NCBI GenBank assembly: GCA_947457935.1
Contig: CANGXP010000002.1
Span: 47,701-111,700 of the forward strand
Length of the DNA stretch: 64,000 nt
Source of the DNA: Alphaproteobacteria bacterium
GTDB lineage: Bacteria; Pseudomonadota; Alphaproteobacteria; JAJTHO01; CANGXP01
Direction of reading: 5' to 3'
Below, piece by piece: positions 1,960 to 56,207 of this stretch. How positions within the stretch are numbered: position 1 is the stretch's first letter; each line of letters opens with the position of its first letter. Below the pieces are notes generated by a model. The model was not told where the DNA came from and searched no databases. It was given only the letters and a program-made list of their open reading frames with translations. Position numbers and translations under genes: made by a program.

Positions 1960-3075
1960 TCATTTCACAACAAATAACGCATCAGAAAAAGCGGTAAACA
2001 CTCCATTCTTAGCTTTATGCGAAAAGGAAACAGCCATTTTATCAATATTTCTACTGTCGAAAGCATCCACATATGTATTAATCGTTGTTGTCAACGCATC
2101 AATATTACGCTTTAATTTCCATGATGCGTCAAAATCCGCCGTATCAATAAGGATTAAGAATAAACGATTGGATGCGTCAAAACGCATTTCTCCCTGTTCC
2201 TCATACAAATTTTGAATAAGCTTTCTGGGGTTTTTAACACATTGTTTTGCAAGGTTTTTTCTAAAGTCTGTAATTTCTTTAAGTGCCATATGGGCTTCAG
2301 GTAGAGCGCTGTCTTTGAAACGTGCCACGATTTCTGCAAACACATCTTTTTGTCTACCATCGCTCCCATATGCAATGTTTAGGATTTTTGCAGTAGATTT
2401 TAAGTGTGAGAATTCGGATTTTAAGCCTTCTTGTTTACGACACATCTCTACAAAATTTGTTGGAAGGTAGGTAACTTTTAAATCAAAGGGGATGTTATCA
2501 ATAAAAAAATCTACTTTTTTCACATTTCCAACAGCGGGCAAAACCTTTGGATGCTTTTTAAAAATGTTCTCTATGAGAATGGTTGACCAATGATTGTACC
2601 AACTGCATATGACATACCCATAGACAGCACGCGGTATCTCTGTCTCCAACATCCTATTAATAGTTTCATATGAGGGATATTCCTTCACATATGTATCTAT
2701 CAAATACTTATCAAGGGCATTTTTATAATCACCACCCCAATCAAAGTGCTGCACCCGATACAATTCGGAAACGAGCGAATTTTCTCGTTCAACAGAAAGT
2801 AGAGCCGTCTTCTGACGAATAAAAACATCTATTTGTAAATGCGCCTCTTGAGGATTTTCTAAAAGAATTTCATAAAGGCTTTTGAATTTTTGCGCTGTAC
2901 CTTTCACCGACGGAACATTGAGTTGAGCGTAGAATTCATCAAGAATTGTCCCTCGCGAAATAGATTTGAGCTTTAACCACAATAGCCCTTCCGTCGTTTG
3001 TGTTAATTCTGCAAGATTATCTGAATCAAATAAACGCTTAAAAAAATCAAAATCAATCATGGCTATTTCCTGCAA
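1960..3075 (-). CDS. Hypothetical protein, candidate restriction endonuclease partner of the adjacent methyltransferase (PD-(D/E)xK-like motif VDFFIDNIPFDLK)
   Basis: 371-aa ORF in an AT-rich segment. It overlaps the upstream MTase gene by 13 nt on the same strand. Its D-x9-DLK spacing is compatible with a PD-(D/E)xK nuclease core. I recognise no other family motif. Confidence 0.35.
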   Translation of the reverse strand: MQEIAMIDFDFFKRLFDSDNLAELTQTTEGLLWLKLKSISRGTILDEFYAQLNVPSVKGTAQKFKSLYEILLENPQEAHLQIDVFIRQKTALLSVERENSLVSELYRVQHFDWGGDYKNALDKYLIDTYVKEYPSYETINRMLETEIPRAVYGYVICSWYNHWSTILIENIFKKHPKVLPAVGNVKKVDFFIDNIPFDLKVTYLPTNFVEMCRKQEGLKSEFSHLKSTAKILNIAYGSDGRQKDVFAEIVARFKDSALPEAHMALKEITDFRKNLAKQCVKNPRKLIQNLYEEQGEMRFDASNRLFLILIDTADFDASWKLKRNIDALTTTINTYVDAFDSRNIDKMAVSFSHKAKNGVFTAFSDALFVVK

Positions 3076-4127
3076 ACCAATAAGTATTCTTTGCTTCCAG
3101 AAACAGAGCCTTTTCCTCCGCGTGATTGAGTATACTCTTTCTCATATGCGATAACATGCCTATATTTTTTAGCAATTTCAATAAGGCTGTTAATATCAGG
3201 ATAAGAGCGACAATTATAGCTTAATAACATATGGGGAATATTTTCAGATGCCGCAAAAAGACGATGAAAGGAGAGTTCTACATCACGCTTTTTGTCAAAG
3301 CCACTGTGCCTAGGGGGATAATATCGCTTGGTTCCCCCCCGAAATTCTTTGTCTTCCCAACGCTCCCCATATGTTTCTAACATATGGTAAAATGCTTGAT
3401 AATCAGCGTGACTACTACAGTAAGGCGGATCATAATACGCAAGGTCAATGCCTGATACTGTTGGCAATAGTGTTAGAATATCATTTTGATAAGAAATATT
3501 GTCCTGTCCATTATCAAAAATAGCGGCATTATACTGAGGTAGTATCTCTAAGAATAACGATTGTATGGGTTTAGCAATGCTCGGATTGCGCCGAATCCTA
3601 TCGGGATTATTAGCATATGGTATCGCTTGCAGGTGTGCAAAATGCCCCATAATAATTTTTCTTGTGAGGCTACGATTCATGACGCAAAGCGCAAGGGCTT
3701 TTTTATAGGGACAGGATAATAGGTCAACATTAGTACGAAAAGTATCAAGAAAAACACTATCTTCTTGATTGAAGAATATCCCTTGAAATAAGGTTTGTAC
3801 TTGGTTTTGCCGCAAAGGATTTTGTGCAAATAAGACAGATGTATCTTCTTTTGAGAGCGTAGCACTCTTGTTTTCTATCAGAGCCTTTCCTGTCATATGA
3901 CAGAATTGCATTAAATCATTGGTATGCACTGCTAAGCCTTGTTGCTTTAAAGCATATGCAACAGATTGTGACCCTCCGAACCCGTCTAATACTGTAGAAA
4001 TATCGTTAGGAAGATATTGTAATATCCAAGGCAATATTTTGTGCTTCGCCCCAAGATATTGGGGTTCGGGAAAATCATATGAACCATGGAATGATTGTGT
4101 GGGATTAAACAGAGGAAGAGCGTGCAT
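3063..4127 (-). CDS. N6-adenine DNA methyltransferase, Dam-like (D12 class)
   Basis: N-terminal AdoMet motif (EPQYLGAKHKILPWILQYLP...VLDGFGGSQSVAYA), a later catalytic DPPY tetrapeptide (LAYYDPPYCSSHADYQAF), and the motif order I-TRD-IV of alpha-class Dam methylases. GC is lower than the flanking DNA. Confidence 0.7.
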   Translation of the reverse strand: MHALPLFNPTQSFHGSYDFPEPQYLGAKHKILPWILQYLPNDISTVLDGFGGSQSVAYALKQQGLAVHTNDLMQFCHMTGKALIENKSATLSKEDTSVLFAQNPLRQNQVQTLFQGIFFNQEDSVFLDTFRTNVDLLSCPYKKALALCVMNRSLTRKIIMGHFAHLQAIPYANNPDRIRRNPSIAKPIQSLFLEILPQYNAAIFDNGQDNISYQNDILTLLPTVSGIDLAYYDPPYCSSHADYQAFYHMLETYGERWEDKEFRGGTKRYYPPRHSGFDKKRDVELSFHRLFAASENIPHMLLSYNCRSYPDINSLIEIAKKYRHVIAYEKEYTQSRGGKGSVSGSKEYLLVCRK

Positions 4128-15927: not shown

Positions 15928-17070
15928 ATGCGCCAAAAAATCATCCGTATTTTAAAGCACGAAACAGCAACAGGGGTGACGCTGTTCCTCGCAACAGTGT
16001 TGGCGTTAATCCTTGGTAACAGCGCGTTACACCCGCAATATCATGCGCTATTGCAGCAAACGCTCTCGCTAGGGATTCTTGAAAAATCGGTGGAGCATTG
16101 GATTAACGACGGCTTGATGGCGTTGTTTTTCCTCTATGTGGGGCTGGAAATAAAAAAAGAAATGTTGGAAGGGCATTTGCAAACGCGGGCACAAATTACG
16201 CTGCCTGCCATTGCGGCAGTGGGGGGCATGTTGTTTCCCGCGCTTATTTATGTCGCGTTGAATCAACACCATCCTGAAAATTTGCAGGGCTGGGCGATTC
16301 CCGCTGCGACTGATATTGCGTTTGCAGTGGGGGTGATTTCCTTGCTGGGCAAGCGTGTGCCGCCCTCTATTAAAATTTTCCTCATGGCGGTGGCGGTGTT
16401 TGATGACATTGGCGCAATTTTGGTGATTGCGCTGTTTTATACGAAAGAGTTGCAGTTGCTCTATTTGGGGTATGCAGCAGTAATTTTAGCGGCATTAGGT
16501 GCGTTTAATCACTTTAAAATAAAAAGTCTTGCCCCCTATCTTGTATTGGGCGCGATTTTGTGGTACTGTATTTATAAGTCAGGCGTGCACGCAACAATAG
16601 CGGGCGTTTTGTTAGGGTTGCTTATTCCCTTGAAGGTTGGCACGCAGTCGCCACTCAAAAGCCTGATGTATACTTTGGATCCGTGGGTGTCGTTTTTGGT
16701 GCTGCCGTTGTTTGCGCTGGCAAATGCGGGGATTTACCTAGGGGATATGGCTGTGGCTGATATTTTATCGCCGTTGCCACTGGGCATTGCGGCGGGGTTG
16801 TTTGTGGGCAAGCAACTGGGCGTAATGGTATTCACGTTTTCGGCGATAAAATTGGGACTAGGGCAAATGCCTAAACAGGCAACATGGGGGCATATCTATG
16901 GGGCGGCGATATTGACGGGTATTGGTTTTACGATGAGTTTGTTTGTAAGCAACCTGTCGTTTTCGGGGGGAGATGCAGTAGGGTTAACACGGTTGGGAGT
17001 GCTGGCGGGATCAGCGGCATCTGCGATAGTGGGATTTACGGTGCTTTGGTGGGTTAGCAAAAAACAATGA
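15928..17070 (+). CDS. nhaA: Na+/H+ antiporter NhaA
   Basis: 380-aa polytopic membrane protein with NhaA motifs (GIPAATDIAFAVGV, VFDDIGAILVIALFYT). Confidence 0.85.
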   Translation: MRQKIIRILKHETATGVTLFLATVLALILGNSALHPQYHALLQQTLSLGILEKSVEHWINDGLMALFFLYVGLEIKKEMLEGHLQTRAQITLPAIAAVGGMLFPALIYVALNQHHPENLQGWAIPAATDIAFAVGVISLLGKRVPPSIKIFLMAVAVFDDIGAILVIALFYTKELQLLYLGYAAVILAALGAFNHFKIKSLAPYLVLGAILWYCIYKSGVHATIAGVLLGLLIPLKVGTQSPLKSLMYTLDPWVSFLVLPLFALANAGIYLGDMAVADILSPLPLGIAAGLFVGKQLGVMVFTFSAIKLGLGQMPKQATWGHIYGAAILTGIGFTMSLFVSNLSFSGGDAVGLTRLGVLAGSAASAIVGFTVLWWVSKKQ

Positions 17071-18428
17071 TACGAAAATTTTTCATTTTGGCAGGAGTTT
17101 TATTGATGGCGCACGGATTTAATGCAGCGGCGGGAACGCCCGCAACAACGGGGGTTTTCAACCCGCAGATTTTCACCCTTGAGAATGGGATGACGGTGGC
17201 GTTGATTGAAAATCATCGGGTGTCTGCTGTGGTGCATATGGTGTGGTATAAGGCAGGGGCGATTGATGAAAAGCCCTCAAAGTCAGGGGTGGCGCACTTT
17301 CTGGAACACTTGATGTTTAAAGGCACGAAAACCATTGCGGAGGGCGAGTTTTCTAAGCGGGTCGCAAAAGTGGGGGGCGAGGACAACGCGTTTACGAGTT
17401 GGGACTACACCGCCTATTTCCAAAAGGTTGCTACCAAAGATCTTCCTGAAATGATGACCATGGAAGCAGACAGAATGCAAAATCTGTTGTTGTCGGAACA
17501 CGCGGTGGAAACAGAAAATAAGGTGATTGTGGAAGAGCGTCGCTCGGTGATTGATAACAAGCCGACGCGTCAGTTTGCCGAACAACTGCAAGCCGCCACC
17601 TTTCTGCATCATCCCTATAAAACGCCCATTATTGGCTGGTATTCGGAGATGTCTTCTTTGAGCCGCGAGGATGTGTTTGATTTTTATAACACGCATTATG
17701 CGCCGAACAATGCGGTGTTGGTGATAGCGGGGGATATAACCTTGCCTGCGCTGAAAGAACTAGCGGCGAAAACTTATGGCAAAGTGCCGTCTCGTCCCGT
17801 TGCGAAAAGCCCTGTGATGAAAGAGCCGCCACAGCTTGCGGCACGAACGCTTGAAATGCGCTTACCCAACGTGCAAATGCCGTTATGGCGGCGGCAATAT
17901 GTCGTGCCCAGCTATGCAACGGTGGGCGAGGATAAAGGGGTTGTGGATGCGTTAGAAGTGTTTGCCCAGATTTTAGGCGGTGGGGAATCTAGCAGATTAT
18001 ATGAAAAGTTGGTTTTAAAGAAGCAAATCGCCACCAATGTTAGTGTGTATTACGAAGCGGCAAAGCGCGGTGACAGCACGTTGGTGATTGATGTAGTACC
18101 TGTTGATGATAGTACAGCGGGACTCGCCGCTGTGACCAGCGCGGTGGAAGCCGAGATTGCAGCACTACGCGTTAAGCCTGTGCTGCCTGAGGAATTACAA
18201 CGCACAGTGCGCTCTATGCAGGCAGAGGCGGTCTATGCCCGTGATAGCCTGATGCACCCTGCAACCGTGGTGGGCGAAACGTTAGCGTTGGGACTACCCA
18301 TAAGCTATATTGAAGAATGGCCAACACGGATTGGCGGTGTGACAGTAGAGCGAGTGAAGGCAGCGGCGGCGTTGTTGGATGTAAAAGCCTCTGCTACGGG
18401 GTATTTGTTACCTGCGAAGAAAAAATGA
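17067..18428 (+). CDS. Periplasmic M16-family zinc metallopeptidase, catalytic subunit (pitrilysin-like)
   Basis: Signal peptide and an inverted zincin motif HFLEHLMFKGT (HxxEH). 453 aa. Confidence 0.8.
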   Translation: MIRKFFILAGVLLMAHGFNAAAGTPATTGVFNPQIFTLENGMTVALIENHRVSAVVHMVWYKAGAIDEKPSKSGVAHFLEHLMFKGTKTIAEGEFSKRVAKVGGEDNAFTSWDYTAYFQKVATKDLPEMMTMEADRMQNLLLSEHAVETENKVIVEERRSVIDNKPTRQFAEQLQAATFLHHPYKTPIIGWYSEMSSLSREDVFDFYNTHYAPNNAVLVIAGDITLPALKELAAKTYGKVPSRPVAKSPVMKEPPQLAARTLEMRLPNVQMPLWRRQYVVPSYATVGEDKGVVDALEVFAQILGGGESSRLYEKLVLKKQIATNVSVYYEAAKRGDSTLVIDVVPVDDSTAGLAAVTSAVEAEIAALRVKPVLPEELQRTVRSMQAEAVYARDSLMHPATVVGETLALGLPISYIEEWPTRIGGVTVERVKAAAALLDVKASATGYLLPAKKK

Positions 18429-18460
18429 TGGTTTTTATGTCAGGACACGTTTCTGGAAAT

Positions 18461-18601
18461 ACCCCTCACCCCAACCCTCTCCCACAAGGGGAGAGGGAGT
18501 TTTCTTTGTGTTATATTCTTTGTACACATCTTGTAAAAATTGTTGCAAGCAGTATGCAGATGCTCCCTCTCCCCTTGTGGGAGAGGGTTGGGGTGAGGGG
18601 T
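18461..18601. repeat. Perfect 39-bp inverted repeat (arms 18461-18499 and 18563-18601, 63-bp spacer). MITE/REP-like element between the two M16 peptidase genes
   Basis: Left arm ACCCCTCACCCCAACCCTCTCCCACAAGGGGAGAGGGAG. Right arm CTCCCTCTCCCCTTGTGGGAGAGGGTTGGGGTGAGGGGT, an exact reverse complement. Each arm also contains its own hairpin, CCCTCTCCC-ACAAG-GGGAGAGGG. Confidence 0.8.
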
Positions 18602-19897
18602 AAAATATCTCTCTTCCTCCTCCTATTTACTCTATTCACTCCCCAAGAAAGCAAGGCTATGGTCGCGATTCAAGACATCACAACGCCCTCAGGCATTACA
18701 GCATGGTTGATAGAAGACCATGCCGTGCCGTTGGTGACGATCAATTTTATGGTTAAAGGCGGTGCGGCGGCTGATGGGGCAACAAAAGCAGGGTTGACCA
18801 CCGTTGCCACGCAAATTTTGCTGGAAGGCGCGGGGCAATATGACTCTCTCGCTTTCAGCAAACAGCTTGATGAATATGCGGTGCGCCTGAGTTTCAACAC
18901 AGGGCGGGATTATTTCAGCGGCACGCTGCAAACCCTCACCGAGAATTTGCCAAAAGCCATTGAGCTTGCTTCTTTAGCTTTAACACAACCGCGCCTTGAT
19001 AAAACCTCGTTTGCCCGTGTGAAAGCGCAACAGCTTTCAAGTTTGCAAGCCGCCAATCAAAACCCTGCCGAACAAGCCAAAAAGCTGTGGTGGAGAACGG
19101 CGTTTAAGGGGCATCCATACAGTGTTCCCACGGAAGGGGAAATGGCGACAGTTGAGAAACTGACGTTGAAAGACGTGCATGAATTTGCCAAAACGCGCCT
19201 TGGGCGCAACGCACTGATTATCAGTGTGGCAGGGGCGGTGAATAAAGAGCAAGCAACCGCGATGGTAGAGGGCATTTTTGGCAACCTCCCTCTGATTACC
19301 GTGCCTGCCCCTGTTGCGGTGCAAGCGGTGCAAAAAAGCGGGAATACAGTGGTGGAGAAAGTTTCTCTCCCGCAAAGTGTAGCGATTTTCGGGCAAACTG
19401 GCGTGCGCCGCATTGACAAAGATTATTACGCCGCAACACTGCTGAATTATGTGATTGGCGGCGGGGGATTTGCTTCGCGGCTCATGCATGAAGTGCGCGA
19501 AAAGCGCGGTTTAACTTATGGGATTGGCACGGCGTTATCCGACACCGTCGCGCAACCGTTGTTTTTTGGGCAAGTTTCCAGTGCGAATGAAACCGTAACG
19601 GAGGCTCTGACGCTAACGAAAGCGATTTTGGCAGATATTGCGAAAAATGGTATCACCGCGCAAGAACTACAAGATGCAAAAGACCATGAAAATGGCTCGT
19701 TTCCATTAGATTTGGATAATACTGAGCGGCTAGCGAGCCTTGCCTCTGCCATGCAATACTATGACCTGCCGAAGGATTTTTTAGAAAAAAGAGAGTCGCT
19801 GATTTCTGCGGTGACGTTAGACCAAATTAACCACTTAGCCGCTAAGGTGTTTCACAGCGATGCATTAGTTATTGCTATTGTTGGAAACCCTAAATAA
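18554..19897 (+). CDS. M16-family peptidase homologue lacking HxxEH, likely the non-catalytic partner subunit
   Basis: M16 fold similarity but no HxxEH motif. Predicted start MQMLPLPLWERVGVRGKISLFLLLFTLFTPQESKA is signal-peptide-like. The ORF track extends upstream to 18317, through an inverted repeat and across the previous gene's end. Confidence 0.65.
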   Translation: MQMLPLPLWERVGVRGKISLFLLLFTLFTPQESKAMVAIQDITTPSGITAWLIEDHAVPLVTINFMVKGGAAADGATKAGLTTVATQILLEGAGQYDSLAFSKQLDEYAVRLSFNTGRDYFSGTLQTLTENLPKAIELASLALTQPRLDKTSFARVKAQQLSSLQAANQNPAEQAKKLWWRTAFKGHPYSVPTEGEMATVEKLTLKDVHEFAKTRLGRNALIISVAGAVNKEQATAMVEGIFGNLPLITVPAPVAVQAVQKSGNTVVEKVSLPQSVAIFGQTGVRRIDKDYYAATLLNYVIGGGGFASRLMHEVREKRGLTYGIGTALSDTVAQPLFFGQVSSANETVTEALTLTKAILADIAKNGITAQELQDAKDHENGSFPLDLDNTERLASLASAMQYYDLPKDFLEKRESLISAVTLDQINHLAAKVFHSDALVIAIVGNPK

Positions 19898-21172: not shown

Positions 21173-22131
21173 GGCGTATTCTTCCACCGCCGATGCAACC
21201 ACAGCCACTGTTCAGGATGGGCGCGAATCCAGTTTTCAAACAGCGCGTGCAACTGCAGGAGCACTGCAACACGCTTTGTATCGTCAAGCTCTCCCGCTTC
21301 AATAATTAAAGCCTCATGCATAATCAGGCGAAAGCTACCGTTTTTCTCTCTAATGCACTGCGCGGGAATAATCGGGAGTTGGAAACGCACCGCAAGATCC
21401 ACAATCGCGCTGGCTGTCATGGCGGGGAGCCCAAAAAACGGTACTTCTACACCATCATTCATTTTTTGATCTATCAAGAACCCTAAGTTCTTTTTGTTCT
21501 TAAGATTTTTAAATAGAATGCGTGCTCCCTCTGCCCCTTTGGGGGCAAATCCCCCCTCTACCCCTCCTCTATTGCGCTGAATCAGGCTATTCACAAAGGG
21601 GTTATTTGCCTTGCGAAACACCCGAATGAAAGGCATGTTATAGTGTTGCGCGATATGCGCCAGCACCTCCCAATTTCCCAAATGCGCCGAAACAAACAAG
21701 ACATTTTGTTGTTGGCGATGGAAATTTTGGAAGAGATGCGCGTTTTCCACGAAAATATGCGGTGTTGTGGGGCGTTTTGCAGGGTCATCTACGATGGGGA
21801 GGGTATGCAGTTTTGGCATCTCCCCCACAAGCCGCCCCAAGTTATCCCATACACCCACTATGGTTTTTCGCCGCTCTAGAGCAGACTGCTCAGGGAAAAC
21901 ACGGCGTAGATTATTGTCTGCAATTTTAGAGACAGGTAGCAACACGCCAAGGGCACGCGCTATAAAACCGCCTATTGCAGAGGCGGTTTTATAAGGCAGA
22001 CAAGTAAAAAACTTGTAGAAAATAAAAACGGGGATGGCTTCAAGGAGATACCGCACGATTTTTGAAAGCGGCAGAGAGCGGGCTTCTTCAGAGAGTATTC
22101 TTTTTAAAATCGAGAAGTGCACATTGTTCAC
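21169..22131 (-). CDS. Lipid A biosynthesis lauroyl/myristoyl acyltransferase (LpxL/HtrB family)
   Basis: Acyltransferase H(x)4E motif (VSAHLGNWEVL), 320 aa, single N-terminal TM segment. It lies directly downstream of atpF on the same strand. Confidence 0.65.
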   Translation of the reverse strand: MNNVHFSILKRILSEEARSLPLSKIVRYLLEAIPVFIFYKFFTCLPYKTASAIGGFIARALGVLLPVSKIADNNLRRVFPEQSALERRKTIVGVWDNLGRLVGEMPKLHTLPIVDDPAKRPTTPHIFVENAHLFQNFHRQQQNVLFVSAHLGNWEVLAHIAQHYNMPFIRVFRKANNPFVNSLIQRNRGGVEGGFAPKGAEGARILFKNLKNKKNLGFLIDQKMNDGVEVPFFGLPAMTASAIVDLAVRFQLPIIPAQCIREKNGSFRLIMHEALIIEAGELDDTKRVAVLLQLHALFENWIRAHPEQWLWLHRRWKNTP

Positions 22132-22140
22132 GCCAAATGC

Positions 22141-22608
22141 CTAAGCAGCACGGATGATTTTTTCCATCTGCTGCACATCTTTCGCGGAGTCTTGCGTTTG
22201 TGCGCGGAGTAATTGTTCTGTTGCTTTTAAGGCAAGAGCAACAGCCACAGCACGAATTTCTTGCGTTGCGCGTTGCTCTGCACGCGCAATTTTTTCCATA
22301 GCGCGTTGCTTTTGCGCTGCCATGTCTTTATCCAGTGCTTCTAACGCTTCTTTTTGCAAGAACAGCGCATCGCGCTCTGCTTGCTCAATGAGACGCTTCA
22401 TATCACTAGCTTGTTCTTTTTGTTGCTTTTTAAAAGACTCAAGTAATGCTTGCGCTTCTTCATGCAGCGTTTTTGCGTCATCGAGTTTTTTGCCAACCCC
22501 GACTGCATAGCCATCAAGCGTGTTTACAACGGAGCGGATGAGAGGACGCGCTACAGCCGCTATAAACGTGAAAAAGGCAACAGAATAAAGAATTTTTGTG
22601 CTGTCCAT
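22141..22608 (-). CDS. atpF: F0F1 ATP synthase subunit b
   Basis: 155 aa with an N-terminal TM helix and a long charged coiled-coil tail. It is the last gene of the atpI-B-E-F'-F F0 operon. Confidence 0.75.
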   Translation of the reverse strand: MDSTKILYSVAFFTFIAAVARPLIRSVVNTLDGYAVGVGKKLDDAKTLHEEAQALLESFKKQQKEQASDMKRLIEQAERDALFLQKEALEALDKDMAAQKQRAMEKIARAEQRATQEIRAVAVALALKATEQLLRAQTQDSAKDVQQMEKIIRAA

Positions 22609-22611
22609 CGC

Positions 22612-23115
22612 CTAACTCGCTAATTTTTGATAATCGTTTGTTACAACGCGGACGCTATCGCGCACAGATTGTTGTTGCGCCTGACCACCACTTAATTTTG
22701 CAAAGCATTCTGCAGCAACAACACTCACTGTTTCTTGAATGCTTGCAAACGCTTCATCTCTGGCTGTTTTAATCCGCACTTCTGCAGCGGCGGTTTCAGC
22801 GGCAATTTCAGCATTTAAAGCATTCTGCCTAATAACAACCGTTCTCGCAATGTCCGTCTTCATGTCGTCCATGATTCGCCGTATTTGTTGCTGTGCCTCA
22901 GTTTGATTACTTTCCAGCATTCCTTTGAGTATGGTAGCCTCTTTCTGAAGCTCTCTTGCCTGCTGTAGATCGTTTTCAACGCGTTTTTCTCGCATTTCGA
23001 GAACTGCCTTAATTTTAGGCAGTCCCCGTGTTTTAAGCAAAAAATACAGCGTACTAAATGTTAACAACAACCAAAAAAGTTGTGTCACAAAGGATTCTGG
23101 ATTTAACTGCGGCAT
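22612..23115 (-). CDS. atpF2: F0F1 ATP synthase subunit b-prime
   Basis: Second b-like subunit (TM helix plus coiled coil), as in alphaproteobacterial and photosynthetic F0 operons. The start is placed at the internal Met (MPQLNPESFVTQLFWLLL...). The ORF track starts at 23202. Confidence 0.65.
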   Translation of the reverse strand: MPQLNPESFVTQLFWLLLTFSTLYFLLKTRGLPKIKAVLEMREKRVENDLQQARELQKEATILKGMLESNQTEAQQQIRRIMDDMKTDIARTVVIRQNALNAEIAAETAAAEVRIKTARDEAFASIQETVSVVAAECFAKLSGGQAQQQSVRDSVRVVTNDYQKLAS

Positions 23116-23294
23116 AACAATCCCAACAACACTATTACAGGACTTACGCAGTGCTCGTCTTTTCGGTAATTTTGTTGTCAGAAAATTGCTCAAAATGCTC
23201 ATTTACGTCTAGTAAACTGCGCTTTTTCCCAAATTTCTTCCTAAAAATTCCTCAAAAATTCATCACCTGCGTAAGTCCTGTAGTCATAAAAAAT

Positions 23295-23519
23295 CTAGCT
23301 TTGTAGCATGACGATCGCAATAACGAAGCAAAGAATGAGTACTAACTCGGTTGCAGCGAAGCCAATAAAGGTCATTGTTTTGAACTTTGGCTCAGCAGAA
23401 GGATTGCGACTTGTTGCATTGATGTAAGAAGAAAAGATATTCCCCAAACCAAGACCAACGCCAAGAGCGGCAAACATTGCAATACCAGCGCCAATGAATT
23501 TTGCTGCTACGGGATCCAT
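23295..23519 (-). CDS. atpE: F0F1 ATP synthase subunit c
   Basis: 74-aa proteolipid with a GxGxGxG region (GAGIAMFAALGVGLGLGNIF) and a conserved carboxylate helix. Confidence 0.85.
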   Translation of the reverse strand: MDPVAAKFIGAGIAMFAALGVGLGLGNIFSSYINATSRNPSAEPKFKTMTFIGFAATELVLILCFVIAIVMLQS

Positions 23520-23549
23520 AAGATATTCTCCAAATTTAAAAGTTAAAGG

Positions 23550-24278
23550 TTAATGTAATTCTAAAGCATCTTTAATATAGACGCAGGTAAGCAATGAAAA
23601 GATATATGCTTGAACGCACGCTATAAAAAACTCAAACGCTATTATCGCAAGTGATAGCACAAACGGAAACACGGCAATCGCCATACCCGCCGACACAGTC
23701 ATTGCGATAATAACTTTTAAAACAATGTGTCCTGCCATCATGTTTGCAAAAAGTCGCAAAGAAATTGTTACAGGTCTCATGCAATAAGAGAACATTTCTA
23801 TCGGTGCGAGTAAAATCAAAACATACCAAGGAACGCCATGCGGTGCAAACAGCCTAAAGAAATGCAACCCGTGCTTAACAAACCCTAGTATGGTCACAAA
23901 TAAAAACACCAACATCGCTAACGCGAACGTAACAATAATATGGCTTGTGAAGGTAAAAGCAAACGGAAACATGCCAAACAGGTTGCCAAACAAAATAAAG
24001 GCAAACAGGCTAAATACTAACGGGAAATAGGAGGCGGCGCCCTTCCCTGCTGTGTCTGTTACAAGGGAATGCACGAAAGAATAAAACAGCTCTCCTGCTG
24101 ACTGTAACCGATTAGGGATAAGTGCCTGCTTTCGCCCTGCGAACGATGTTAATAACAGCGTCATCACAACGGAAACCACCATTGCCAGAGAAGAGTTGGT
24201 AAAAGACACATCAAACCCAGCCAGCTTTGGCAGTTCTATCAGAGTTTTAATCTCAAATTGGTGTAGCGGGCTGCTCAC
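23550..24278 (-). CDS. atpB: F0F1 ATP synthase subunit a
   Basis: 242-aa polytopic protein with the conserved subunit-a arginine helix (ISLRLFANMMAGH). Confidence 0.85.
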   Translation of the reverse strand: MSSPLHQFEIKTLIELPKLAGFDVSFTNSSLAMVVSVVMTLLLTSFAGRKQALIPNRLQSAGELFYSFVHSLVTDTAGKGAASYFPLVFSLFAFILFGNLFGMFPFAFTFTSHIIVTFALAMLVFLFVTILGFVKHGLHFFRLFAPHGVPWYVLILLAPIEMFSYCMRPVTISLRLFANMMAGHIVLKVIIAMTVSAGMAIAVFPFVLSLAIIAFEFFIACVQAYIFSLLTCVYIKDALELH

Positions 24279-39555: not shown

Positions 39556-40199
39556 CAATTAAAGCCGTAATTTTTGATATGGACGGCGTGCTGATTGATG
39601 CCAAAGACTGGCATTATGAAGCCCTTAATCGTGCCCTTGCCCTGTTTGGATATGAAATTAGCCGTTATGATCACCTCGTCACATACGATGGGCTACCTAC
39701 CGCCAAGAAACTTGATATGTTGACGCTGGAAAGGGGACTCCCCAAAGGACTGCATCGCTTTTTGAATGACTTAAAACAAAAATACACGATGGAAATTATA
39801 CACGCGCAGTGTAAGCCAACATTTGCGCATGAATATGCTTTGTCACGACTAAAAGCCGAGGGCTACAAACTCGCTATTGCCTCTAATTCTGTGCGCAATA
39901 CTGTTGAAAGCATGATGGAAAAAAGCATGTTGCGCCCCTATCTTGAACTTCTTTTATCTAACCAAGATGTTAAAAAAGGCAAACCCGATCCTGAAATTTA
40001 CACAACCTCTATTGAGAAATTGGGGCTAACTCCCTCAGAATGCTTAGTGGTTGAAGATAATCCCCACGGGATTAAAGCAGCCAGAGATGCAGGGGCGCAT
40101 GTTATGGTGGTGCAAACAGTTTATGATGTTCATTACACCGCCATTAAACAGGAAATTGCAAAAGCAACCGCGTTGAATAACGAGGGTGTTGCAGCATGA
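39552..40199 (+). CDS. HAD-superfamily subfamily IA hydrolase (beta-phosphoglucomutase-like phosphatase)
   Basis: Motif I VIFDMDGVLIDA, motif III K (KKGKPDP) and motif IV (VVEDNPHGIKAARDAG). It overlaps its neighbours by 4 nt at both ends. Confidence 0.7.
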   Translation: MTIKAVIFDMDGVLIDAKDWHYEALNRALALFGYEISRYDHLVTYDGLPTAKKLDMLTLERGLPKGLHRFLNDLKQKYTMEIIHAQCKPTFAHEYALSRLKAEGYKLAIASNSVRNTVESMMEKSMLRPYLELLLSNQDVKKGKPDPEIYTTSIEKLGLTPSECLVVEDNPHGIKAARDAGAHVMVVQTVYDVHYTAIKQEIAKATALNNEGVAA

Positions 40200-40969
40200 G
40201 TGCCTCTAAACTCAATGTTCTCATCCTGATGGCAGGGTCTAGCAAGTCCTTTAAGGAAGCAGGTCATATATACCCCAAAATGCTGCTAGAAATAGATGGT
40301 AAGTCTCTTGTTGAACACGTTATTGCTTCTTATGGATCGTTGGTCTCTGAGGAAGTAAACTTAACTTTTGTGATACGCAAAGAAGACAACCAAGCCTTCC
40401 ATCTTGGCACTGTCATAAAATTATTAATGCCTGATGCCACAATCCTTGAAGTAGGCGGCACAACGGCTGGGGCTGCCTGCACCGCTCTTCTTGCGATTGA
40501 TAATATTAATACAAACGATGCGCTCCTTATTCTCAATGGCGATCAAATTTTGCACACTGACTTGGGCGCGATTGTTAAAAAATTTCACACACAACAATGG
40601 GATGGCGGGATTGTGACATTTCGGGCTGTGCACCCTAAATGGTCGTACGTCAAAGCAAATGTAGATGGCTTCGTCATTGAAGCAGCGGAGAAACGCCCCA
40701 TCAGCAATAGAGCAACAGCAGGAGTCTATTACTTCAAAAAAGGGGCTGATTTTGTCGAAGCAGCAACCAGCATGATCGTGAAAGATGCGCATGTGGACGG
40801 GGCATTTTATGTCTGCCCCTGTTATAATGAAATGATTTTACGTCAAAAAACGATAGGAACGCACGAAATAAGCGCGAAACAATACCTTTCTATCATAACA
40901 CCCCAAGCCTTACAGGCACTAGAAGAAGCTGTTAATACGGGAAAGGTGCGCCTTTATGAAGCTGCATAA
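40196..40969 (+). CDS. Sugar/alcohol-phosphate nucleotidyltransferase-like protein (NTP_transferase GT-A fold), paralogue 1
   Basis: N-terminal LILMAGSSKSF...PKMLLEIDGKSLVEH nucleotide-binding loop and clear paralogy to the 41306-42052 product (HPKWSYVK../DPKWSFVR.., AGVYYFKKGADFV/VGIYNFTRGADFV, FYVCPCYNEMI/FYVAPVYNQMI). Confidence 0.5.
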   Translation: MSASKLNVLILMAGSSKSFKEAGHIYPKMLLEIDGKSLVEHVIASYGSLVSEEVNLTFVIRKEDNQAFHLGTVIKLLMPDATILEVGGTTAGAACTALLAIDNINTNDALLILNGDQILHTDLGAIVKKFHTQQWDGGIVTFRAVHPKWSYVKANVDGFVIEAAEKRPISNRATAGVYYFKKGADFVEAATSMIVKDAHVDGAFYVCPCYNEMILRQKTIGTHEISAKQYLSIITPQALQALEEAVNTGKVRLYEAA

Positions 40970-41279
40970 ACTAAATGAGATGACACGCGGCTGGTTTGTG
41001 GGAGACTTCACGCCCAGCCTCTATCAAACACAAGATGTTGAGGTTGCCATCCAGCATTTTGCAGCAGGCACGGTGGAGGCAGAGCATTATCACGCCATTG
41101 CAACGGAGATTACCGTTATCGTCAGTGGCGAAGCAGAAATGCAGGGTCGTCGTGTTAAAGCAGGTGATATTGTTGTCATTGAACCCAAGGAAATTACGGG
41201 TTTTACAGCTATTACAGATGTGACAACAGCCGTTGTAAAACTCCCCGGAGCAAAAAATGACAAATATCTCGCGTTGTAA
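40956..41279 (+). CDS. Small cupin-fold protein
   Basis: 107 aa with a His-containing cupin motif region (AAGTVEAEHYHAIATEITVIVSGEAEM...GDIVVIEP). It overlaps the upstream gene by 14 nt. Confidence 0.45.
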   Translation: MKLHKLNEMTRGWFVGDFTPSLYQTQDVEVAIQHFAAGTVEAEHYHAIATEITVIVSGEAEMQGRRVKAGDIVVIEPKEITGFTAITDVTTAVVKLPGAKNDKYLAL

Positions 41280-41305
41280 ACACAAAAAGATAAGGATATT
41301 GAGCA

Positions 41306-42052
41306 GTGATTAATATTGTTGTCCCCATGGCAGGCCATGGAAGTCGCTTTTCTAAGGCGGGCTACACACTACCCAAACCCCTTATTCCCGTGGCTGGCGT
41401 GCCCATGATCAAAGGAGTAATTGCCAACCTTACCCCACAAATACCACATCGATTTATTTTTATCTGCCAAGCGACACACCTAGCAAATTATGGTCTATCG
41501 GAAAACCTTCGCCAGTGGGCAAAAAATTGCGTTATTCTTTCTGTTGATAGCGTAACAGAGGGAGCAGCCTGCACTGTATTATTAGCAGAAAAATTCATCA
41601 ATAATGAAGATCCGTTGATGATTGCAAATTGTGACCAGTATGTAGACGTAAATATTGACGCGTATCTAGAGGCACAACAAGGATTCTCGGGGTTAATGAT
41701 GACCATGAAGGCAGCTGATCCTAAATGGTCTTTTGTACGCTTTGATGAATCAGGAAAAATCATAGAAGTAGTAGAAAAAGAGGTTGTATCTGATGAAGCT
41801 ACAGTGGGGATCTATAATTTTACACGGGGCGCAGATTTTGTGGTCGCAGCAAAAAAAATGATTGCACAAAATTTACGTGTTAAGGGTGAATTTTATGTTG
41901 CACCTGTGTATAATCAAATGATAGCGCACGGTGCAAAAATAGGCATTTATAATATTGGTACAGTGAACAACGGAATGTATGGCTTAGGAACACCTGAAGA
42001 TTTAGAGGTCTTTTTGAATTTACCCATAGCAACCGTTTTTGCTGCTGCATAA
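41306..42052 (+). CDS. Sugar/alcohol-phosphate nucleotidyltransferase-like protein, paralogue 2
   Basis: VVPMAGHGSRFSKAGYTLPKPLIPVAGVPMI N-terminal loop. Paralogous to the 40196-40969 product. Confidence 0.5.
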   Translation: MINIVVPMAGHGSRFSKAGYTLPKPLIPVAGVPMIKGVIANLTPQIPHRFIFICQATHLANYGLSENLRQWAKNCVILSVDSVTEGAACTVLLAEKFINNEDPLMIANCDQYVDVNIDAYLEAQQGFSGLMMTMKAADPKWSFVRFDESGKIIEVVEKEVVSDEATVGIYNFTRGADFVVAAKKMIAQNLRVKGEFYVAPVYNQMIAHGAKIGIYNIGTVNNGMYGLGTPEDLEVFLNLPIATVFAAA

Positions 42053-53957: not shown

Positions 53958-54899
53958 TTATTCTATTTCTATTTCTACCCCCTCTTTTTCAGATTGCTTG
54001 GTTAGGTAAATCACGAGGTCTTCTCTGTCTGCCTTTCCAATTGGCTCCTTGGTATCTTTATATGTTAATCTAGAAACGTATGTAGCCTCAGAGGCAAGAT
54101 ACCAACTTTCTTCCTTAGGCAATCGAATAATTCTACCTCGATATTCTAGAAGTACATAGAATCTATCAGAGAAGAACCAATTAAAATTATGATGTGTTGA
54201 GGCATCTGGTGTCAGCTCAACATCATCAAAAACTTCATGGCTATCAAAATAATTAGCTTTATCGTGATATTCTATGCATAAAATTTCTTCTTGCGCGACA
54301 ACTAACCCCTCGAAAGTACTCTCAACATAAAGCTCTATTTCGTCTTCAAGCATATGGTTAATTGAAAAAATCCTATTTTGGATATTTTCACCAGATGTTT
54401 CTTCTTTTATAAACCAACCCGTGTCTACTCTGAAAATATAATATTGAAGAGGAAAATTTTCTTTTGCATGATCATCCCATAGTCTGTAGAAAAATAAGGA
54501 TCTTTTAAAATTTTCTATAATCTCTTTTTTATCCACTTCGCTGGGCGGCGTTTCATAGCGTTCTTTGATTGCTTGAGTAAAGTTAGATATTTTCTCCCTT
54601 GGCTTGTCAAAAGTGTAGTTGTCAGCTTTTAATTCAAGGACATCGCAAAATTCTACAAATGTTCCGATGAAGTCTTTTTCAACAAAGTTGCTCCATTTCT
54701 GATATAATTCAAATCTTCTCATACATGAGCGTCTCAATATATCGCTGGTAAGATAGCGCATCTCCGAATCTATTTTGTCTATATCTTCCTTTATGTTGAA
54801 GAATATCGATTGATCTTCTAACGCGTTTGTAGTGTCAATACTGGTTATCGCATCGTTAATATCTTTTAGACGCTGGATATATTCTTCTGGTTTAAACAT
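53958..54899 (-). CDS. AT-rich orphan hypothetical protein: acidic, cytoplasmic, 313 aa
   Basis: Long ORF in a segment with clearly lower GC than the surroundings. It is on the same strand as asd, 25 bp downstream of it. I recognise no motif. Confidence 0.4.
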   Translation of the reverse strand: MFKPEEYIQRLKDINDAITSIDTTNALEDQSIFFNIKEDIDKIDSEMRYLTSDILRRSCMRRFELYQKWSNFVEKDFIGTFVEFCDVLELKADNYTFDKPREKISNFTQAIKERYETPPSEVDKKEIIENFKRSLFFYRLWDDHAKENFPLQYYIFRVDTGWFIKEETSGENIQNRIFSINHMLEDEIELYVESTFEGLVVAQEEILCIEYHDKANYFDSHEVFDDVELTPDASTHHNFNWFFSDRFYVLLEYRGRIIRLPKEESWYLASEATYVSRLTYKDTKEPIGKADREDLVIYLTKQSEKEGVEIEIE

Positions 54900-54923
54900 C
54901 GTAAATTCCCTTCAAAGAACACT

Positions 54924-55937
54924 CTACAAGTAATTCTCAATCAACACTTCTGCAATCTGCACGCTGTTGAGTGCCGCTCCCTTACGCACGTTGTCGGCTA
55001 CAATCCACAAGTTTAAACCGTGCTCTACAGTCGGGTCTTTACGGATACGACTCACATACACAGGGTCTTGCCCACTGCTTTCTTTGGGGGTCATAAACCC
55101 ATATTCATCGGGGTTATCCGTCAACCAAACACCGTCTGCTTCTTGTAGAGCAGCGCGGGCTTCCGCCACGCTAATCGGGCTTTCAAATTCCACGTTTACG
55201 GCTTCTGCGTGCCCCACAAACACAGGCACACGCACACATGTTGCCGAAACATCAATCCCCGCATCAAGGATTTTCTTGGTCTCCACCTGCATTTTCCATT
55301 CTTCTTTGGTGTAGCCATCGTCCATAAACACATCAATTTGCGGGATGACGTTAAACGCGATTGGCTTTGAAAAGTGTTCGCTGGGGGCTGCCGTGTTCAT
55401 CAAAATAGCACGGGTTTGGTTATACAACTCATCCATTGCGCCCTTCCCTGCCCCCGAAACGGATTGATAGGTCGCAACCACAATCCGTTTAATCCGTGCA
55501 ATGTCATGCAGCGGCTTTAACGCCGTGACCATCTGAATGGTGGAGCAGTTCGGGTTGGCAATAATATTGCGCTTTGTATAGTCCGCAATCGCATCCGCAT
55601 TCACCTCAGGCACGACCAATGGCACGTCTTTATCCATACGAAAATGAGAGGTGTTATCAATCACTACACAGCCCGCTGCTGCCGCTTTGGGTGCATAAAT
55701 TGCGGATACTTTCCCCCCCGGAGAGAACAGAGCAATTTGGCATTGCGAGAAATCAAAGGTGGCGAGATCTTGAACCGTCAGACGAATATCATCGCCAAAC
55801 GACACTTCCTTGCCCACAGAACGGCTAGATGCCAGCGCGAATACTTTATCCACAGGAAACTTGCGCTCGAACAGCGTTTCCAACATGGCGCGTCCCACGT
55901 TTCCCGTCGCGCCCACAACAGCAACATTGTATTTCAT
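54924..55937 (-). CDS. asd: Aspartate-semialdehyde dehydrogenase
   Basis: NADP-binding VAVVGATGNVGR, active-site Cys context (IANPNCSTIQ) and a C-terminal dimerisation domain. 337 aa. Confidence 0.9.
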   Translation of the reverse strand: MKYNVAVVGATGNVGRAMLETLFERKFPVDKVFALASSRSVGKEVSFGDDIRLTVQDLATFDFSQCQIALFSPGGKVSAIYAPKAAAAGCVVIDNTSHFRMDKDVPLVVPEVNADAIADYTKRNIIANPNCSTIQMVTALKPLHDIARIKRIVVATYQSVSGAGKGAMDELYNQTRAILMNTAAPSEHFSKPIAFNVIPQIDVFMDDGYTKEEWKMQVETKKILDAGIDVSATCVRVPVFVGHAEAVNVEFESPISVAEARAALQEADGVWLTDNPDEYGFMTPKESSGQDPVYVSRIRKDPTVEHGLNLWIVADNVRKGAALNSVQIAEVLIENYL

Positions 55938-55953
55938 TGTTTTATCATCCTTC

Positions 55954-56207
55954 TTAGGGGCATTAACTATATAGTTGTTTCAATTTAGAATTACCCATAG
56001 CCGAAAGCTGATGCTGCCAAAAAGCACTGCTTTTTGCAACAGCAGCCAATGAGCTTTACTAAACACAAGCCCAAAAGGGCGAAGTGATTAGTTTAGGCGG
56101 AATTGAAGCAGCGGCACGAAGTTTACCTTTTTGTAAATGAGAGACGCTAAGGGAAGTTTGCAGGCAGGGGTAATTTTAAAGTGGGACGACTATAGCAGCC
56201 ACAATCT
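55954..56207 (+). repeat. Interspersed mosaic repeat, copy C: modules 1, 3-like and 2, between the class IV aminotransferase gene and the asd start
   Basis: TTAGGGGCATTAACTATATAGTTGTTTCAATTTAGAATTACCCATAGCCGAAAGC (module 1). CTAAACACAAGCCCAAAAGGGCGAAGTGATTAGTTTAGGCGG (module 3-like). GTAAATGAGAGACGCTAAGGGAAGTTTGCAGGCAGGGG...GGGACGACTATAGCAGCC (module 2). Confidence 0.65.

Follow-up and report, generated by a model that had tools for sequence, protein, structure and literature searches.

At the junction of two M16 peptidase genes, a long perfect inverted repeat is present in a window of 64,000 nt (contig CANGXP010000002.1, Alphaproteobacteria bacterium). The window is the whole stretch of DNA that was analysed, and coordinates refer to it unless another contig is named. 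The gene pair sits between nhaA and pgi. With high confidence, the repeat can be assigned by its sequence to a widespread, non-autonomous and dispersed element that is known as BoxC, PIT (potential intrastrand triplex) or triplex motif (TM; also TM_ECO or HPGQ). It is a composite copy: two inverted units are arranged with their C- and G-rich tails outward and with a lineage-specific spacer between them. The features of the locus are listed below. L220 and L001 are contigs from related lineages, on which the same gene pair is found.

17067–18428, + strand: gene 1, catalytic M16 peptidase with HFLEH (HxxEH motif), from translation of the open reading frame (ORF)
18425–19897, + strand: gene 2, M16 homolog without HxxEH, with a frame that begins at the overlap start and crosses the element (ORF translation; the 96% identical P0001 was called from the same start by JGI/ENA)
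18425–18427, + strand: ATG overlapping the TGA of gene 1 (ATGA), proposed to be the original start of gene 2 and to be in use still; L220 and L001 conserve it
18460–18602, + strand: whole composite of 143 nt, two inverted BoxC/PIT/TM units flanking a 63-nt spacer (inverted-repeat search, folding, genome scan)
18460–18499, + strand: left arm, TM unit in reverse orientation with the C-rich tail CCCCTCACCCCAA (18462–18474) followed by the inner hairpin (18475–18497); reverse complement of the TM_ECO sequences (Table 1, PMC4666352; BLAST to E. coli)
18475–18507, + strand: left inner hairpin of 9 bp with 7 G-C pairs, then AGTTTTCTTT, together resembling an intrinsic terminator on the + strand (terminator scan)
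18500–18562, + strand: AT-rich, lineage-specific spacer with non-conserved ATGs at 18554 and 18560 (alignment of copies)
18563–18602, + strand: right arm, TM unit in forward orientation with the inner hairpin (18565–18587) and the G-rich tail TTGGGGTGAGGGG (18588–18600) (sequence, inverted-repeat search, translation)
18579–18600, + strand: GGGAGAGGGTTGGGGTGAGGGG with four G-tracts, the block of the motif capable of forming a G-quadruplex or triplex; also the Shine-Dalgarno-like GGGAGAGGG, 5 nt and an in-frame GTG (18593–18595; sequence, frame computed from the translation)
18602–18658, + strand: K, the hydrophobic core ISLFLLLFTLF and TPQESKA, the putative h- and c-regions of a signal peptide; predicted mature start MVAIQ at 18659 (from the translation; orthologs read ...SHNAHA/MPDIQ)

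Structure of the inverted repeat

The arms (18460–18499 and 18563–18602) are 40 nt long each, complementary at 40 of 40 positions (100%) and separated by a spacer of 63 nt. The original prediction described a perfect inverted repeat of 39 nt (18461–18601). This repeat is present and extends to 40 nt by an additional outer T/A pair. Both arms also contain the inner stem of 9 bp that had been noticed, formed by CCCTCTCCC/GGGAGAGGG with a loop of 5 nt each. The stem strands are located at 18475–18483 and 18489–18497 in the left arm and at 18565–18573 and 18579–18587 in the right arm.

Pattern searches of the 64-kb window found the inner hairpin and a 22-nt arm core only in these two places, with up to three mismatches allowed, and thereby confirmed that the window contains a single copy. 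Neither pattern occurs in any of 100 dinucleotide shuffles. As the original prediction had proposed, the folding energy was calculated, and the region is far more stable than its shuffles. As RNA, a region of 181 nt folds with −109.2 kcal/mol (shuffles −52.6 ± 4.8, z = −11.9). As single-stranded DNA, a stretch of 153 nt folds with −58.8 (shuffles −18.3 ± 3.1, z = −13.3). The left inner hairpin by itself folds with −19 kcal/mol. Since the pattern is unique in the window, is absent from all 100 shuffles and has extreme z-scores in folding, the inverted repeat is far above chance. No match at the gathering score of Rfam was found in the whole window, and the hits below this threshold are eukaryotic miRNA hairpins only. 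Additionally, the 3' end of gene 1 is joined to the left terminus of the element by a perfect complement of 9 nt (GGGGTATTT/AAATACCCC, 18398–18406 and 18457–18465), which may be due to chance or may allow an alternative pairing.

A composite of the BoxC/PIT/TM repeat

Each arm consists of CCCTCTCCC, the loop, GGGAGAGGG, two bases and GGGGTGAGGG, which corresponds to one motif unit. The motif has been defined as CCCTC(T/G)CCC, a loop of 3–6 nt, GGGAGAGGG, a linker of 2–3 nt and GGG(G)TGAGGG (PMC4666352). Both arms match this three-block motif exactly (compared with Table 1 of PMC4666352). In blastn searches, 5374 of 5426 complete E. coli genomes contain sequences with 88–91% identity to the arms (median 30 places per genome), and not one of these places is annotated. 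The same tails-outward composite is present in an E. coli strain, where it is sited between two genes. Judged by these matches, the arms are an already known motif that the original prediction overlooked.

The family has reportedly been known since 1992, with early descriptions of BoxC and PIT by Bergler (1992) and by Hoyne and Maher (2000 and 2002). The name BoxC was followed by PIT and later by TM_ECO or HPGQ (PMC4666352, PMC5100583). E. coli K-12 contains 23 motif units, among them five inverted pairs, and the motif is found in more than 260 genomes (PMC4666352). An isolated single strand of the E. coli motif forms a triplex or a G-quadruplex in vitro (PMC4666352, PMC5100583). In vivo footprinting gave no signs of a triplex, and PIT elements have neither promoter nor terminator activity in E. 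coli (PMC4666352). The motif is tied to local sequence instability, and no function, cognate autonomous element or transposase has been reported in the literature (PMC4666352). The pattern of the 21-mer TM arm was observed in at least 120 stretches of IMG/VR contigs, although Holder et al. (2015) saw no association of the motif with phages or plasmids (PMC4666352). On one IMG/VR contig (L024, minus strand, ~10068), three or more TM units of ~41 nt each follow one another head to tail.

The element in the window shares the three-block motif, the conserved stems, the variable loops and the frequent inverted pairs with the described family (PMC4666352), as well as unannotated copies and the absence of a known function or transposase. 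There are also differences. The motif of E. coli K-12 was reported to be always intergenic (PMC4666352), whereas the element in the window lies inside an open reading frame, which is a descriptive rather than a defining property. The five pairs of E. coli K-12 combine a type A (TTA) with a type B (CCG) unit on short spacers (PMC4666352). In the window, both units have a 'TT/AA' linker and the spacer is AT-rich, lineage-specific and 63 nt long. The same sequence family was viewed as a G-quadruplex motif in the HPGQ 'G-quadruplex-hairpin-duplex switch' (Kaplan et al. 2016, PMC5100583). The window element has the corresponding four G-tracts (18579–18600), a competing upstream C-rich hairpin block and pairs on opposite strands; by its sequence it has the potential for a triplex or G-quadruplex as single-stranded DNA. 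In E. coli, HPGQ sequences are located between operons and a regulatory role was proposed (PMC5100583), in contrast to the position inside an ORF observed here.

Genomes were scanned for the exact left and right 21-mers at a distance of 80–110 nt, with one genome per GTDB species. At least 117 composites of 122–152 bp with identical 21-mer arm cores were found. Their hosts belong to the Alpha-, Beta- and Gammaproteobacteria, Verrucomicrobiota, Thermoanaerobaculia, Planctomycetia, Abditibacterium, Myxococcales, Desulfobaccales and Dehalococcoidia and include Candidatus Uhrbacteria. The composites (L125–L241) span at least ten phyla, including metagenome-assembled genomes (MAGs) of Candidatus Uhrbacteria (candidate phyla radiation) and Dehalococcoidia. 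Many genomes have multiple copies. The spacers are alike within one genome and different between genomes, which means that it is the whole composite that multiplies. Of 118 family composites, 24 have a perfect inverted repeat of 38 nt or more, so that perfect arms, regarded as special in the original prediction, are ordinary within the family; the copies of L220 and L001, at the same site as in the window, contain mismatches. Five composites (L170, L195, L226, L149 and L215) have an inverted repeat that runs on into the flanks for at least 12 nt. Three composites of Planctomycetia bacterium CTOTU28215 (L179, L193 and L200) are on high-coverage contigs and are identical including their flanks, which places them within a larger repeat. 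A metagenome scan with the subfamily-specific left end of the spacer (GGGAGAGGGRGYTTTCTTTGTG) yielded three unrelated chance matches; the collection did not include the L001 contig itself. A profile search with the element-encoded peptide returned six short unrelated ORFs, none of them usable.

Terminal inverted repeats (40-nt arms), small size (143 nt in total), the lack of coding capacity for a transposase, shared internal sequence and the existence of filled and empty sites (see below) are features that the element has in common with MITEs (miniature inverted-repeat transposable elements). The target-site duplication typical of MITEs was looked for and not found. After the inverted repeats had been extended outward, 88 of 115 composites had no flanking direct repeat and 23 of 115 had a match of 1 nt, as expected by chance. 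Most termini are CC and not TA, and the TA/TA of the window is not shared by L220 or L001. The element is not a classical MITE, as the 115 family members yielded no target-site duplication. Correia/NEMIS elements of Neisseria are comparable in their size (~100–150 bp), long terminal inverted repeats, co-transcription with neighbouring genes and a long RNA hairpin as potential RNase III substrate. They differ in their TA target duplication, which is lacking in the family of the window element, in their IHF or promoter motifs and in their unrelated sequences. REP/BIME sequences (mobilised by RAYT) are likewise short GC-rich hairpin repeats that often form inverted pairs and have no target-site duplication. 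However, no GTAG or CGTC tetranucleotide is located beside the hairpins of the window, where CCCCTCACCCCAA and TTGGGGTGAGGGG are found instead, and REPs are species-specific whereas the motif described here is conserved across phyla.

Age and dispersal of the insertion

The closest homolog of the gene 2 product is P0001 (96% amino acid identity; contigs L001 and L002). In both contigs the element is present at the same site and in the same gene order. The same site is filled and gene order is conserved in L220 (JBILKT010000036.1), which belongs to the MAG Alphaproteobacteria bacterium ME2017-07-14_3300042517_group7_bin76. The window, L220 and L001 differ by 10–12% of the nucleotides across gene 1 and by 26–37% at 4-fold degenerate sites of genes 1 and 2. 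The insertion predates the split of these three lineages. It is old, since the same site is filled despite such divergence, and the original prediction of a recent event is not supported. A recent insertion was also considered as the source of the perfect symmetry and was rejected: the 4-fold divergence is too large, and perfect arms are common in the family.

Compared to the window, the spacer is 96% identical in L220, 82% identical in L001 and partly homologous in L125, a paralogous copy (3, 14 and 21 differences in 67 positions, respectively). One of the three spacer changes in L220 disrupts an arm pair; the change of the outer TA lies just beyond the 67 nt counted. Apart from the 14 spacer changes, the L001 copy has an insertion of 15 nt in the left loop and several arm mismatches.

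While a single copy is found in the 64-kb window, the related MAG has two loci, L220 and L125. The composite of L125 (JBILKT010000005.1, 1219–1370) has identical arm cores and homologous spacer ends (TTTCTTTGTG ... AAAAATTGTGGCAAGCAGTACGC). TTTCTTTGTG is retained in all four copies of this subfamily. The host is a small lipoprotein gene between argH-like and lysA-like genes. It reads AAGGAG, 7 nt, an ATG (MITPHNIN), the element and then LCVVLCFVLLTGC followed by TTLN..., with the lipobox LLTGC. An ortholog with 67% identity (P0128, contig L247) has no element and starts with MQKTLAFGLILLALTSC followed by TTLN..., a plain lipoprotein signal peptide. On comparison of the sequences, L125 and L247 evidently represent a filled site and its empty counterpart. 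Just after the ATG of L125 and 21 nt upstream of its element, TACCCCTCAC (1196–1205) equals the left terminus of the element; it may be left over from the insertion event or from an additional, partial tail.

A more distant M16 ortholog, P0003 (contig L003, 50% identical to the protein of the window), contains another family composite close to the corresponding position, with its left arm in a different frame and its right end 6 codons farther from the conserved K-I-S. P0004 and P0006, which are 78–79% identical to P0003, have no TM composite, therefore the insertion in L003 is independent. The P0004 genes overlap and contain no insert at all. On the contig of P0006 (L124), the same M16 junction is occupied by another kind of insert, ~150 nt long (2407–2558), which resembles a palindromic repeat and contains GTCATCCCGGCGAACGCCGGGAACC. 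By these sequences, the junction of gene 1 and gene 2 seems to be a recurrent and tolerant landing site. Among the homologs found, none has an empty M16 site in a close relative, as identity in the list drops from 96% to 50%. The comparison of filled and empty sites that the original prediction called for thus rests on L247, the empty ortholog of the L125 gene, and on P0004. Its proposal of an inserted mobile repeat holds in so far as the element is a dispersed insert and not original sequence of the operon (distant orthologs without the TM element, a second copy in L125, an empty site in L247). A classical MITE is not supported.

The idea that the window is unusually gene-dense and offers no intergenic landing sites is not supported: long ORFs cover ~86% of it and leave numerous gaps, each several hundred nt long. 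The G+C content is lower (37.5–43.5%) at 2001–4000, 22001–24000, 40001–42000 and 54001–56000 than in the window on average (~48%).

Two tails and four 9-nt stems form the core of the motif, 62 bases in total (within 18462–18497 and 18565–18600). None of these bases is changed in three orthologs and the L125 paralog. The loops and the spacer do change in the same comparison, and 4-fold sites of the flanking genes differ by 26–37%. At a neutral tree length of ~0.5 substitutions per site, it is extremely unlikely that 0 of 62 bases are changed by chance. Selection at the protein level fails to explain the invariance because no synonymous change is seen. Either sequence-specific selection or gene conversion among copies may be responsible.

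Reading frame, start codon and alternative explanations

The reading frame of gene 2 is open and in phase from the ATG at 18425 through the element to the hydrophobic core (KISLFLLLFTLF...SKA/MVAIQ) in the window, in L220 and in L001. This open frame upstream of the element, which begins at the ATGA overlap, was overlooked in the original prediction. MQM (ATG at 18554 or 18560) had been regarded as the most plausible start instead. It is excluded as a conserved start, as ATG 18554 is replaced by ACG in L220 and L001 and ATG 18560 by ATT in L001. The overlap of the two genes also exists in L003 (ATGA) and in L124 (GTGA). In-phase open frames lead through the inserts of L003 (from the ATGA), of L125 (from the ATG with its Shine-Dalgarno sequence) and through the unrelated insert of L124 (from the GTGA). 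Two length differences of 15 nt, the left-loop insertion of L001 and a longer right loop of L125, are both multiples of three. The joint chance of this pattern is ~1 in 1000 (1/3 for the length phase times the observed fraction of stop-free frames per element, for four independent events). With the element removed, the leader reads MMVFMSGHVSGN joined to KISLFLLLFTLFTPQESKA, and its length resembles that of ortholog leaders.

The explanation favored here combines identity and history of the element with its tolerance by read-through, and as a whole it is given a probability of about 0.55. The insertion would fall into codons of the signal-peptide n-region, with a length that preserves the frame and without a stop codon. 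Gene 2 would still be translated from the coupled ATGA, where its start overlaps the gene 1 stop. From there, arriving ribosomes would melt the long hairpin and read across the element. In this way 47 extra residues (TPHPNPLPQGEREFSLCYILCTHLVKIVASSMQMLPLPLWERVGVRG) would join a long n-region and would be lost with the signal peptide. The odds that the element is indeed translated as 47 extra residues of a cleaved signal peptide are about even. The right arm, which reads LPLPLWERVGVRG in the frame of the gene (18563–18602), would supply two arginines immediately before the hydrophobic core; its other stop-free frame would supply two glutamates. Since the right arm is buried in the 40-bp stem of the predicted RNA fold, which speaks against free internal initiation, only insertions that are readable from upstream would survive, which would account for the frame pattern. 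Spacer substitutions between the window and L001 are distributed about evenly over the three codon positions. This lack of a third-position bias fits a peptide of irrelevant sequence that must stay open. As a passenger tolerated in a discarded leader, the element would need no dedicated regulatory role.

Several points weigh against this explanation. The start codon of gene 2 is one that we infer, an n-region of ~60 residues would be unusually long for a signal peptide, and ribosomes would have to open a structure of −109 kcal/mol. In the right arm itself, GGGAGAGGG, 5 nt and an in-frame GTG-AGG-GG are available. Initiation at this GTG yields textbook signal peptides in the window (MRGKISLF...) and in L125 (MRGLCVVLCFVLLTGC), and the latter resembles the MQKT... 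of the empty-site ortholog. Furthermore, the in-frame statistic is based on four independent events only, with rough priors, and a neutral passenger model does not account for the complete invariance of the 62 core bases. A general link between composites and signal peptides was considered and was not seen among the at least 117 composites of other genomes; long ORFs that look like 'fusions' there are either artefacts of GC-rich sequence or cases with the element in the 5' untranslated region.

An unlikely but serious alternative is that the element is an untranslated intercistronic RNA and gene 2 starts within it, either at GTG 18593 with GGGAGAGGG as ribosome-binding site or at ATG 18560 or 18554 in the apical loop. 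The 40-bp hairpin would then gate the start and be opened by ribosomes that finish gene 1, or it would be an RNase III site that uncouples the cistrons, as in Correia/NEMIS. A perfect duplex of 40 bp generally suits RNase III. Neither the Shine-Dalgarno-like block nor the gap of 5 nt nor the in-frame GTG varies, three of three independent TM insertions use the frame with this GTG in phase (reading ERVGVRG), and the signal peptides starting at GTG are canonical and as long as that of the empty-site ortholog. Internal initiation, however, leaves unexplained that four of four independent insertions have an upstream ORF that is open, in phase and preserved despite indels. In addition, the two ATGs are not conserved, the stem of the RNA fold hides both the GTG and its Shine-Dalgarno block, and PIT elements have neither promoter nor terminator activity in E. 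coli (PMC4666352). Both starts, ATGA 18425 and GTG 18593, may be used. A further step, rather improbable, would be to see in the BoxC/TM composite of this alphaproteobacterial lineage a portable 'start cassette' that serves exported proteins. The right arm places the Shine-Dalgarno-like GGGAGAGGG, an in-frame GTG and Arg-Gly ahead of a hydrophobic core in three of three independent insertions (two M16 lineages and one lipoprotein). If this were true, the 40-bp hairpin would keep the start shut until upstream ribosomes arrive and thus enforce translational coupling. Selection on a functional site, and not a passenger repeat, would then account for a core that is invariant over ~30% neutral divergence. 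Quite doubtful is also a site selected on the level of DNA or RNA, for which the local position would be secondary; the cores would bind a conserved protein or act as a triplex, G-quadruplex or hairpin switch in replication, recombination or transcription. The unchanged 62 core bases in three orthologs and one paralog, compared to 26–37% difference at 4-fold sites, and the identical 21-mers across phyla agree with such a role, as do the triplexes and G-quadruplexes formed by the E. coli motif in vitro (PMC4666352, PMC5100583). On the other hand, in vivo footprinting in E. coli gave no sign of a triplex and no function was found (PMC4666352), gene conversion among copies would yield the invariance equally well, and the present analysis identified no candidate binding protein for the motif cores.

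Very unlikely is a transcription attenuator, in which the left inner hairpin followed by UUUUCUUU would end some transcripts between the peptidase genes and set the subunit ratio. In a simple terminator scan, the left inner hairpin (18475–18497, 9-bp stem) with AGTTTTCTTT passes, whereas the long hairpin followed by UAAAAUAU fails, and the T-rich tract is kept in all four subfamily copies. Nevertheless, the stem has only 9 bp, the U-tract is not continuous and is displaced by 2 nt, and PIT elements have no terminator activity (PMC4666352). The same T-rich tract is present in the L125 copy, which has no upstream cistron of a two-subunit enzyme, and under read-through translation the terminator site would fall inside a translated ORF. 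The recent MITE-like insertion of the original prediction, taken as an IS630/Tc1-type element that has a TA target duplication and created the MQM start, is hardly credible. TA is present at both ends in the window, and 139 + 2 = 141 nt correspond to 47 codons. The TA is not kept at the orthologous sites, with TC on the left in L220 and AA on the right in L001, and 115 family members show neither target-site duplications nor TA termini. Moreover, the insertion is older than ~30% synonymous divergence and the MQM start is not conserved.

Read-through of the element would resemble other small palindromic repeats that are fused to genes. Rickettsia palindromic elements (RPE) were reportedly described by Ogata et al. 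in 2000. Like RPE and the MITE ORF fusions of ERIC and YPAL (Delihas 2008, PMC2229807), the element is a small palindromic repeat that lies in frame and without stops in a conserved protein gene; its length is a multiple of three and there is no stop codon in the host frame. The hosts of RPE are also alphaproteobacterial, and a YPAL fusion can contribute a portion of a signal peptide (PMC2229807). RPE differ by their unrelated sequence and by their insertion in mature protein regions, whereas the copies described here would be located in the n-region of a cleaved signal peptide.

The element is real and striking, yet it is an instance of a long-known repeat, an ordinary selfish one at a somewhat unusual position. 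The main value of the analysis is that a striking structure is explained as BoxC/PIT/TM, a family known since 1992. Three observations go beyond the literature consulted. The tails-outward composite with identical 21-mer cores is present in multiple copies in many phyla and without target-site duplication. At one orthologous site, the cores are unchanged compared to ~30% neutral divergence, which provides a handle on the question whether they are selected or homogenised. Finally, the surviving copies of this lineage are in frame in putative signal-peptide n-regions, which would constitute a tolerant coding niche akin to that of RPE in Rickettsia. For annotation, this implies that such 'intergenic hairpins' may belong to an ORF.

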